From: an uncultured Verrucomicrobiae bacterium
GTDB lineage: Bacteria > Chlamydiota > Chlamydiia > Chlamydiales > Rhabdochlamydiaceae
DNA length: 64,000 nucleotides
Direction of reading: 5' to 3'
NCBI GenBank assembly: GCA_963731265.1
Contig: CAVSUE010000001.1
Location: 1,664,001-1,728,000, forward strand
The notes under the pieces are model-generated. The model ran no database searches, was not told the origin of the DNA, and saw only the letters and a program-made list of their open reading frames with translations. Shown here one piece after another: positions 6,561 to 8,049 of the stretch. The position numbers were made by a program, and so were the translations under genes. The number at the start of each line of letters is the position of its first letter. The first letter of the stretch is position 1.

Positions 6561-7181
6561 GTGGTCTCTATGGACGGTTGGTGGATGCAAATGTTCTCCA
6601 TGGCATTTGCGCTTTTTTTGCTGATGGATCCGATTGGCAATGTTCCCATTTTTGTTTCCGTGCTCAAAGATATCGAATCCAAACGCCAACGCAAAATTAT
6701 CGGACGCGAACTCGTTATCGCATTGATCATCATCGTGCTATTTTATTTTTTGGGCGATGCTTTACTCGGATTTCTCAACGTCACTATGCCTACGATTCTG
6801 ATTTCCGGAGGCATTATTCTTTTCCTCATCGCGCTTAAAATGATTTTCCCTGGAAGAAGAGATCCCGACGTCGAACTGTCGCAGGATAAGGAGCCATTCA
6901 TCGTCCCGCTTGCGACGCCTCTTGTCGCGGGTCCAGCCGTTTTGGCTGCTGTCATGCTCTACTCAGGCCAACATAAACAGGAGATGCTCCTTCCTCTGAC
7001 GGCCATCGTGATCGCTTGGGCCCTTTCAACGGTGATCTTGCTCAGCTCATCTCTTTGGAAAAGACTGTTGGGCTGGCGCGGCCTTGTCGCTTGCGAAAGG
7101 TTAATGGGCCTGATCCTGACATTGATCGCGGTTCAAATGTTCCTCGAGGGAACGCATCTATTCTTGAATCCCTTAAAATGA
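6561..7181 (+). CDS. MarC family membrane protein
   Basis: LMDPIGNVPIF, IVPLATPLVAGPA, ERLMGLIL. Confidence 0.9.
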   Translation: MVSMDGWWMQMFSMAFALFLLMDPIGNVPIFVSVLKDIESKRQRKIIGRELVIALIIIVLFYFLGDALLGFLNVTMPTILISGGIILFLIALKMIFPGRRDPDVELSQDKEPFIVPLATPLVAGPAVLAAVMLYSGQHKQEMLLPLTAIVIAWALSTVILLSSSLWKRLLGWRGLVACERLMGLILTLIAVQMFLEGTHLFLNPLK

Positions 7182-7290
7182 TCCCAGACCTTAAGGCGTG
7201 GGATTAAGTTGGGGCCGAGCTTCGTACTCGGCCCAACATTGTTTTTGAAAATACCCGGCCCTTAAGGGCCGGGTTTCCGCCGGAGGACGG
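7182..7290 (+). mobile_element. 109-nt three-hairpin element carrying a terminal SD, copy 1
   Basis: 105/109 identical to the reverse complement of 44820-44928; fills the whole gap from the TGA stop to the ATG start. Confidence 0.85.
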
Positions 7291-8049
7291 ATGAATCTGA
7301 AACTTGTTATCGCCTATTTTGGCCGATCGTTTTCCGGCTGGCAAAAAACTAATAAGGGAAACAGCATAGAAGAAGCGTTGGAGAAGGCGCTCCAGCAGAT
7401 TTTGCAGCATGACGTGCAGCTGCAGGCTGCAAGCCGGACAGATGCGGGAGTTCACGCAGAAGGCCAGGTTGTGAATTTTTTGACTCATAAAAAGGTTTGC
7501 TTGAAAGCACTTGTGCACAGTTTAAACGGCCTGCTTCCCAAAGACATTTCTGTCCTGAGCGCTGAAGAAATGCCGATGGATTTTCATCCGACGCTATCCT
7601 GCAGAAAAAAGGAGTATCTGTATGATCTTTGCTATGGACCCGTGCAAATGCCTTTTGTTCGACATACCTCATGGCATTTTCCCTATGCTTTGGACCTGAA
7701 AAAAATGCAAACGGCGGCGGATCACCTCATCGGAGTTCAGGATTTTTCTTGTTTTTGCAATGAAAGAGCTCTCTGGGACCGCAATCCCATCTGCCATGTG
7801 GAGAAAATCGAATTCATGAATTTCCTTGAAACAGAGCGTCTGTCGATTGCGATCACAGGAGATCATTTTCTCTATAGGATGGCCCGCAACATGGCGGGCA
7901 CTGTCGCCTATGCCGGATGCGGCAAAATCGATCCGGAGCAAATTCCCGCTATACTGGCGAGCAAAGACCGCACTCAAGCCGGAATGACGGCGCCGGCGCA
8001 TGGACTCACCTTGAAACGTGTTTTTTATGATGATGATCTCTCGAAATGA
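7291..8049 (+). CDS. truA: tRNA pseudouridine(38-40) synthase
   Basis: GWQ, SRTDAGVHA, FLYRMARNMAG, TAPAHGLTL. Confidence 0.95.
   Translation: MNLKLVIAYFGRSFSGWQKTNKGNSIEEALEKALQQILQHDVQLQAASRTDAGVHAEGQVVNFLTHKKVCLKALVHSLNGLLPKDISVLSAEEMPMDFHPTLSCRKKEYLYDLCYGPVQMPFVRHTSWHFPYALDLKKMQTAADHLIGVQDFSCFCNERALWDRNPICHVEKIEFMNFLETERLSIAITGDHFLYRMARNMAGTVAYAGCGKIDPEQIPAILASKDRTQAGMTAPAHGLTLKRVFYDDDLSK

Follow-up and report, generated by a model that had tools for sequence, protein, structure and literature searches.

The 64,000-nucleotide (nt) window analysed here (positions 1,664,001 to 1,728,000 of contig CAVSUE010000001.1, assembly GCA_963731265.1, from an uncultured Verrucomicrobiae bacterium that GTDB places in the Rhabdochlamydiaceae) contains two copies, A and B, of a short repeat that separates co-oriented genes. 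This repeat is very probably a non-autonomous transposon of the IS200/IS605 family, more specifically a 113-nt palindrome-associated transposable element (PATE), which lands immediately 5′ of a host ATGAA and brings along its own candidate Shine-Dalgarno (SD) sequence and stop codon. Hallmarks described for the IS200/IS605 family are the lack of terminal inverted repeats (TIRs) and of target duplication, the presence of subterminal hairpins, and a left end placed 3′ of a specific target of 4-5 nt (PMC5027513); the element shows all of these, as expected of a PATE.

The host genome (2.34 Mb in two contigs, C1 and C2, 46% G+C; labelled G000) was compared with 24 other members of its family and with 16 genomes that belong to the order's other families; the relatives cited by label are G001, G002, G003 (the closest), G004, G005 and G013. 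Copies in the host genome were counted as BLASTN matches of at least 40 nt to the element, domain identities were taken from Pfam, and RNA families from Rfam 15. Many of the family genomes are incomplete metagenome-assembled genomes (MAGs), in which repeats assemble poorly.

A 113-nt mobile element and its five-nucleotide target

The initial annotation of the window had aligned positions 7182-7290 on the plus strand with 44820-44928 on the minus strand, and this comparison holds: the alignment is gapless, 4 of the 109 positions differ, and both stretches occupy the entire gap between co-oriented open reading frames (ORFs), namely MarC/TruA and Asp23 with a partner of 168 amino acids (aa). The mobile unit is nevertheless 113 nt long, not 109, because the 5-mer with the upstream TGA belongs to the element. 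What had been a pattern of two copies now extends to 49 copies in the host genome, which are 93-97% identical, and to 13 of the 24 other genomes of the family; BLASTN found none in the 16 genomes from other families. In canonical orientation the order is target TTCAT, a 16-nt linker, hairpin 3, hairpin 2, hairpin 1 and a closing TTCAC. Read along the strand of the flanking genes, the element therefore opens with GTGAA and closes with GGAGGACGG, directly before the host ATGAA. The far side, mostly GTGA, is kept in 42 of the 49 copies and the GGAGGACGG end in 47; neither terminus, GTGAACCC... or ...GGAGGACGG, is an inverted repeat of the other.

That the repeat moves, as had been proposed from the two copies, follows from filled and empty sites. 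At the site orthologous to copy A, G003 has a single ATGAA, so that removal of the element does restore the ATGA overlap of marC and truA that the initial annotation had postulated. In all five informative comparisons (C1:360015, 679424, 1237627 and 1207727, G003; 473072, G002) the empty site reads ATGA where the filled one reads GTGA, and two copies with ATGA on their left (361512 and 486499) have clean empty orthologous sites too. Empty sites differ from filled ones by the element alone, GTGAA included. Therefore, the G of GTGAA is the element's and the ATGAA beside GGAGGACGG is the host's: insertion occurs 3′ of TTCAT, without duplication, and the host ATG is retained.

The bracketing sequences agree with this. 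Before the element, 42 host-genome copies have the 4-mers GTGA (30), ATGA (10) and CTGA (1), with one copy offset by a 1-nt deletion; after GGAGGACGG, ATGA follows in 40 of 47 copies, and the host 5-mer is ATGAA (target TTCAT) at 35 of the 39 full-length copies. In the 80 other-species copies, GGAGGACGG is followed by ATGAA in 43, ATAAA in 8, ATCAA in 7, ATGAC and ATGAG in 4 each, ATTAA and ATGAT in 3 each, ATCAC and GTGAA in 2 each, and there are three singletons; most of the targets that differ from TTCAT fit TTNAT. The far 5-mer of these copies is GTGAA in 49 of 60 and ATGAA in 9 of 60, whatever the host-side 5-mer. Since the bracketing 5-mers differ in many copies, and in view of the empty sites, there is no target-site duplication, and a model built on it is rejected on the same two lines of evidence. 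No target motif beyond the 5-mer was recognised in the flanks, as judged by eye only.

A few loci are worth separate mention. A direct tandem dimer of the element (C2:65348-65566; L016) has GTGAA at its junction, as predicted if one copy inserted beside the terminal 5-mer of another. At C1:378589 the orthologous junction in G002 (L204) reads ATGAACCCATGAA, which could be a 4-nt spacer or a footprint resembling the first bases of the element, and at C2:208823 the junction in G002 lacks an overlap and is uninformative as to whether the G comes from host or element. The 194-codon gene that follows the copy at C1:1237627 (L168 7620-8320) is missing in G003 (L226 2900-3040), where about 130 nt of unrelated sequence stands instead and the ATGA that ends the upstream gene is kept.

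The element folds far beyond chance. As DNA, its three hairpins reach -36.1 kcal/mol (z = -8.0) and as RNA the z score is -4.2, with none of 200 shuffles as good in either case. The hairpins begin 0 nt from one end of the element and 16 nt from the other, which fits the earlier suggestion that subterminal GC-rich hairpins mark it as a probable substrate of a Y1 transposase of the HUH type. Across 93 distinct copies, 97.2% of the stem cells are joined by standard pairs, a value that none of 500 shuffles reached, and 8 stem pairs show compensatory changes (59 of the rows were found via the hairpin 3 pattern); these covariation counts are sequences and not independent events, and about 4-5 subfamilies are involved. 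In hairpin 1 one stem pair covaries strongly (AU 62, CG 26, GC 3). Hairpin 2 has four stem pairs with 2-3 standard pair types each, so that its stem covaries between subfamilies, around a conserved 7-nt loop, CTTCGNA. Hairpin 3 is conserved across all subfamilies seen, an invariance that for the other-species loci L069-L148 follows from their collection with hairpin 3 as the search pattern.

Several other candidate features were tried and set aside. A scan of the gene strand of the element found no promoter-like site. The terminator-like call for hairpin 2 was not relied on, as its T-run begins several bases past the stem, and a mini-ORF from the element's GTG was dropped as a coding feature, being 9 codons long in the host-genome subfamily and far longer in another. 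A classical MITE (a miniature transposable element with inverted repeats) of the TIR type does not apply either, there being no TIRs and no target-site duplication.

Rearranged forms also occur. In two loci of other species (L089, L133) the SD-bearing linker borders hairpin 3 left and right, forming perfect long palindromes like two head-to-head left ends. Solo remnants made of hairpin 3 and the GGAGGACGG linker stand directly before ATG or GTG in L081, L083, L105, L108, L110, L121, L124 and L042 (G005); in L110 and L124 other complex hairpins lie upstream, and these might be the interior of a larger element. In the host genome, C1:1280456-1281535 holds an inverted pair of copies, each preceding a 242-codon ORF, in which about 120 nt of other sequence part hairpin 1 from hairpin 2, suggesting a nested insertion that was later duplicated.

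The closest described counterparts are found in Geobacillus. Both TTCAT and TTTAT are known targets of IS605-family elements there and coding-free PATEs have been described as well; in Geobacillus stearothermophilus, ISGst5 has the target TTCAT and ISGst2 the target TTTAT, and the PATEs are related to ISGst1 and ISGst5 (10.1101/2023.03.14.532601). As described, these PATEs resemble the present element in lacking TIRs, duplication and coding capacity, in having subterminal hairpins at both ends and many copies, and in their presumed dependence on a Y1 TnpA acting in trans. They likewise have a 5-nt target on the left flank, in one case the identical TTCAT, and a similar 5-mer encoded by the element at the right end (10.1101/2023.03.14.532601).

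Gene starts, stop/start overlaps and translation signals

The complement of TTCAT is ATGAA (Met followed by Lys or Asn), and therefore many target sites are gene starts. GGAGGACGG is complementary to the left end's outermost 9 nt, and it places a GGAGG 4 nt before the retained host ATG, as had been noted from the start for both window copies. The tail of the 16S rRNA contains CCTCC, and a 4-mer SD core is found upstream of 31% of gene starts against 8.6% in a control window (both from crude gene calls); the GGAGG probably acts as a ribosome-binding site. A diverged subfamily from another genus (L086, L136) keeps G-rich sequence ahead of ATGAA although its linker differs, which is consistent with selection on SD function. 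At the right end, the gene strand reads GTGAA and offers the upstream gene an in-frame TGA, whereby its last codon changes from NNA to NNG; at C1:360015, for example, AAA AAA TGA in G003 corresponds to AAA AAG TGA in the host genome.

The process envisaged is thus as follows. A TnpA of the Y1 (HUH) type, supplied in trans, would move the element as single-stranded DNA and insert it 3′ of TTCAT, without duplication, between the ATG of a gene and the sequence upstream. The left end would then provide the retained ATG with an SD 4 nt upstream, and the right end would close an upstream gene that formerly overlapped through ATGA. With an SD and a stop at its ends, insertion at gene starts and overlaps would probably be harmless to the host genes, as these would not be broken.

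Where the copies sit was assessed by deleting the 39 full-length copies in silico and classing the 7,994 ATGAA sites of the genome by reading frame. An ORF of at least 100 codons follows 27 of 47 copies, compared with 18.7% of all ATGAA sites (p = 4e-9), and the TGA of the copy ends such an ORF in 17 of 41, compared with 2.5%. Both ORFs are present at 15 copies, only the downstream one at 8 (full-length), only the upstream one at 2, and neither at about 14. Seen from the sites, 15 of the 87 stop/start overlaps (17%), with TGA closing one ORF and ATG opening the next, each at least 100 codons long, are occupied. Where the ATG opens such an ORF without upstream overlap, 6 of 552 sites are occupied if they are not internal to a long ORF in the same frame and 2 of 857 if they are; of those with an upstream ORF only, 2 of 109, and of all remaining ATGAA sites, 10 of 6,389. 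For intergenic ATGAA sites, which rest on crude gene calls, the figure is 10 of 961. Relative to other ORF-opening sites the overlaps are therefore enriched about 19-fold (p = 9e-10), and relative to intergenic ones about 20-fold (p = 3e-11); even if only 200 of the stand-alone starts are assumed to be real, a 5-fold excess persists (p = 5e-4).

Judging from relatives, at least 7 of the 15 occupied overlap sites were overlaps ancestrally, and three (copy B, 378589 and 208823) are not overlaps in more distant relatives. For copy B the initial annotation had reconstructed an ancestral GTGA overlap, which the comparison does not support. Its insertion is common to the host genome and G003, with identical flanks (L034, L111), and absent from G002, G001, G004, G005 and G013; in all five of these, the Asp23 gene has its own stop and a spacer of 2-19 nt, followed by ATGAAAAC or ATGAAAGC. 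With copy B the Asp23 frame runs two codons further, to the TGA of the element, and the orthologues of the 168-aa gene in the five relatives all begin ATGAAAxC (x = A or G).

In other species the tendency towards overlaps is present and weaker than in the host genome: the frame closed by the TGA of the element stays open up to the flank's limit in 24 of 61 copies, compared with 22 of 122 among the two alternative frames (p = 0.003), and both the upstream and the downstream frame are open in 13 of 61. The downstream frame is open to the end of the flank in 32 of 58 copies with a start-type 5-mer, compared with 2 of 22 with a non-start 5-mer.

The association with overlaps is thus a real enrichment, and in this respect the early idea of an element that targets translational-coupling junctions stands; as a statement about recognition it does not, since the target is a pentanucleotide, 8 copies precede starts without overlap and about 14 lie next to neither kind of ORF. 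The excess could come from (i) tolerance, as no promoter or leader is disrupted, (ii) retention, as a copy between two genes would not be lost by imprecise deletion, or (iii) a true insertion bias. Tolerance or retention probably lies behind the excess at gene starts as well as at overlaps. It can be proposed, tentatively, that the PATE lineage has adapted both of its ends to the translation signals of its host, and that its niche is the start codon, above all the 4-nt operon overlap, reached or kept beyond what the target predicts.

The most serious competitor concerns only this last point and accepts the same element and chemistry: a targeting cue would create a genuine insertion preference for operon junctions, instead of tolerance or retention. 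The occupancy of overlaps exceeds the 1.1% of other ORF-opening sites and the 1.0% of the crudely called intergenic sites (p <= 1e-9), native SD content is no different between occupied (4/15) and empty (25/72) overlaps, and the nearest relative lacks at least 6 of the junction insertions, which are therefore probably recent, an impression biased by the choice of the compared regions for their junction copies. Against this, the flanks hold no conserved sequence past the 5-mer (again by eye only), IS200/IS605 targeting as described needs only a motif of 4-5 nt in single-stranded DNA (PMC5027513), and in another genome most copies lie off junctions (13 of 61 with both frames open). Such a preference is rather unlikely.

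Far less probable is the mechanism first put forward for the two window copies, in which an NTGA overlap is recognised, its TGA is duplicated and the ATG is rebuilt from the last A of the element. It draws on the fact that nearly all full-length copies in the host genome are bracketed by RTGA and ATGA, on the strong enrichment of overlap junctions and on the ATGA overlap at the empty site of copy A. However, the bracketing 5-mers are not copies of each other, the far GTGAA being constant while the host side also takes forms such as ATCAA, ATAAA and ATTAA, so that the TGA is not repeated at insertion; and the ATG is not regenerated, as the host ATGAA is already there in empty sites. The five ATGA/GTGA pairs, the GTGAA junction of the tandem dimer, the five relatives without an overlap at the copy B junction, and the copies at the start of tnpA (whose neighbour is divergent; see below), at non-overlap starts and in places with neither ORF all speak against it too.

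Similarly improbable is a conserved structured RNA motif, a 5′ leader or intercistronic element before a regulon, that is not primarily mobile DNA. The element always points to the downstream ORF and ends in an SD, the conserved loop and covarying stems of hairpin 2 would suit an RNA, and there is a resemblance to REP2 of Neisseria. On the other side stand the high identity of copies within the genome, the filled/empty polymorphism among close relatives and between paralogous insertion sequences, the roughly 14 copies that precede no ORF and the unrelated nature of the flanking genes (MarC/TruA, Asp23, tnpA). Rfam 15 gave no match at the gathering score, a relaxed scan giving just two matches of chance level, at 21.9 and 18.1 bits against thresholds of 45 and 39. 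For the transposon preferred here, a secondary RNA role alongside mobility may exist.

A resident IS605-like insertion sequence and the proposed mobilising enzyme

Two Y1_Tnp genes are encoded in the host genome (E = 7e-43), each within an insertion sequence (IS) of about 1.7 kb that also carries a divergently oriented gene for a 383-aa TnpB (OrfB_IS605, Cas12f1-like TNB and helix-turn-helix domains); a third copy of the IS is a 3′-terminal fragment only. IS copy 1 carries the small element exactly at the ATGAA start of its tnpA, and IS copy 2 is identical there without the 113 nt. The two are thus a paralogous filled/empty pair, and one without a stop/start overlap, since tnpB, the gene upstream, is divergent.

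Along the direction of tnpB, the IS shows the flank TTTAT, a linker of 17-18 nt and a hairpin whose core is GGCCC/GGGCC, while its far end consists of a hairpin, AGG and TTCAA; an orthologue in G002 (L276) is built alike. A search for a Y1 gene with the same hairpins, which had been suggested at the outset, has led to an IS605-like IS with similarly built ends elsewhere in the genome, though not to the same end sequences or target. The likeness lies in the architecture of the ends, similar hairpin cores, a left linker of 16-18 nt and a right end of TTCAA as compared with the element's TTCAC; the unlikeness lies in the target TTTAT, a left end without SD-like sequence, and end sequences that are related and not identical. 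The resident IS is best taken as a cousin of the element rather than as its proven parent or mobiliser.

The bases next to the left hairpin are of interest in this respect. Directly 5′ of it, the element has the 4 nt GGAA for its target TCAT, and the IS has AAAA for TTAT, so that a T to C change in the target is matched by an A to G change in the putative 4-nt guide. For IS608, the described pairing rule joins the target TTAC with the guide AAAG (PMC5027513, PMC3597680), and the match seen here, in two element types only, suggests that the same rule may apply.

One further locus combines both repeats: C1:1067073-1067338 is a truncated element (hairpins 1 and 2 only) fused to the last ~207 nt of the IS (the 3′ end of tnpB and the right end), and the fusion point comes after the bases TTCAT.

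Several observations weigh against the proposed transposon, or against particular parts of the account. (i) No full-length IS with ends identical to those of the element and with the target TTCAT was found among the genomes searched, and the resident IS differs in both respects. (ii) Neither of its tnpA genes looks intact, as that of IS copy 1 has a 1-nt frameshift after codon 5 in addition to the element at its ATG and that of IS copy 2 has lost the region of the catalytic tyrosine through two frameshifts; tnpB is intact in both. (iii) Across the 24 family genomes there is no association between Y1_Tnp and the element (both in 4, element only in 9, Y1 only in 3, neither in 8; Fisher p = 1.0), and the three copy-richest genomes have no Y1 match, though two of them are just 64-74% complete. 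(iv) Strand bias is weak, though in the direction expected of the family: 32 of 49 copies have their canonical top strand on the lagging-strand template (p = 0.04), with origin and terminus taken from GC skew only; on contig 1 the count is 26 of 39 overall, 5 of 12 for junction copies and 21 of 27 for the remaining ones. (v) Unlike in IS608, the right-end hairpin abuts the terminal 5-mer without a linker. (vi) The target motif alone fails to account for an occupancy of 17% as opposed to about 1%.

Least probable of all is a repetitive extragenic palindromic (REP) or REPIN-type repeat maintained by a domesticated REP-associated tyrosine transposase (RAYT, TnpA-REP): GC-rich palindromes recognised by Y1/HUH enzymes, high copy number and an encoded Y1-family protein are common to both, but here the Y1 genes reside in a two-gene IS with tnpB (two copies and a fragment, with conserved ends of its own), unlike a single RAYT flanked by REPs, and the repeat has a set length of 113 nt, three different hairpins in constant order, defined ends, a 5-nt target and clean empty sites, and is not a palindrome of 20-40 nt.

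The window copies, other repeats and wider meaning

The features of the two window copies and the coordinates of the resident IS are collected in the table.

Table. Position of the element copies, their parts and neighbours in the window, and of the resident insertion sequence in the host genome
Feature	Position	Strand	Remarks
Copy A, 113-nt element	7178..7290	-	canonical top strand = window minus strand; on the plus strand from far-end 5-mer ATGAT (consensus GTGAA) through to GGAGGACGG; orthologous site in G003 (L046) empty, single ATGAA
Terminal 5-mer of right end, copy A	7178..7182	+	TGA 7179-7181 is now the marC stop; owned by the element according to empty sites
Hairpin 1, subterminal (right end)	7183..7202	+	8-bp stem, TTAA loop; fold
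Hairpin 2, internal	7209..7237	+	7-nt loop CTTCGNA; fold, covariation
Hairpin 3, subterminal (left end)	7253..7274	+	9-bp stem, TTAA loop; fold
GGAGG	7282..7286	+	4 nt upstream of truA ATG; within outermost 9 nt of left end; complements 16S CCTCC
Host ATGAA	7291..7295	+	truA start codon + AA; complement TTCAT = target motif 5′ of left end
marC-family gene	6561..7181	+	ends at element TGA; PF01914, E = 1.2e-54
truA, tRNA pseudouridine synthase	7291..8049	+	PF01416, E = 1.4e-33
Copy B, 113-nt element	44820..44932	+	canonical top strand = window plus strand; left end from 44820, right end closes with TTCAC 44928-44932
Target motif TTCAT, copy B	44815..44819	+	complement of the ATGAA that opens the 168-aa gene
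Asp23-family gene	44929..45387	-	ends at element TGA 44929-44931; PF03780
168-aa gene	44313..44819	-	no Pfam match; starts at host ATGAA directly after copy B
IS copy 1	L031 130-1952 = C1:926562-928384		tnpA/tnpB divergent; target TTTAT, right end TTCAA
IS copy 2	L032 = C1:315819-317530		tnpA/tnpB divergent; target TTTAT, right end TTCAA

Other repeats share the genome with the element. Window positions 23050-23143 (C1:1687050-1687143) belong to a different repeat of about 205 nt with apparent TIRs, similar to a classical MITE (reference copy C1:372590-372794), with 35 BLASTN matches in the host genome and further ones in G002 and G003. A third repeat, of about 165 nt (C1:377091-377258; L167 18091-18258), has 7 matches in the host genome and is frequent in G001 and G005; it opens with ATGAA and closes with TTCAT at its inverted ends, a copy of the 113-nt element abuts the ATGAA end, and G002 has neither of the two there.

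In comparison with the Geobacillus PATEs, as far as the available part of their description extends, the features found only in the present element are the outward-facing SD on the left end beside the cleavage site, the usable stop codon on the right end and the concentration of copies at start codons and stop/start overlaps; a third, internal hairpin with covariation is also particular to it. Comparable to the SD-bearing end are Neisseria REP2 and Borrelia IR, which also lack TIRs, have internal stem-loops and a ribosome-binding site and stand immediately upstream of ORFs (PMC3184786), without sequence relationship to the element. REP2 differs in bringing a promoter and an ATG of its own, whereas here the ATG is the host's, and the part of the source covered describes no transposition mechanism or target motif for it (PMC3184786), whereas here a mechanism can be assigned. 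Mycobacterial interspersed repetitive units (MIRUs) are alike as small intra-operon repeats whose ends overlap the flanking co-oriented genes, leaving the polycistron translatable, with filled and empty sites known; they are unlike in having small ORFs, flanking direct repeats and tandem arrays (PMC3184786). The element, which has no conserved ORF and no duplication, provides an SD where MIRUs use an ORF for coupling. With both REP2 and the MIRUs it has neither sequence nor described organisation in common.

A partial full-text search of the literature turned up no IS200/IS605-type element described as sitting at start codons or as bearing an SD, and the main text of a genomics paper on the Rhabdochlamydiaceae (PMC9723776) makes no mention of MITE, IS200, IS605 or miniature, palindromic or repetitive elements.

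At a practical level, the element is an annotation hazard: when the same 113-nt spacer recurs between genes of chlamydial MAGs, contigs break and starts are miscalled. For the biology of the family, it represents a transposon whose choice of target is tied to gene expression, as the 5-nt target is the complement of the commonest gene start and the adjacent end may double as a ribosome-binding site, and thus a selfish element that would be able to live inside operons without polar damage. The 15- to 20-fold excess at overlaps poses the question of insertion bias versus selection in reduced genomes. If the ends are indeed adapted to translation, coupled gene pairs would have been systematically turned into independently initiated ones, and some 27 genes of this genome would share the same strong ribosome-binding site and a structured intercistronic spacer. 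The element itself would offer a natural system in which translational coupling is lost gene by gene, and would explain a possible origin and spread of ribosome-binding-site repeats such as Neisseria REP2.

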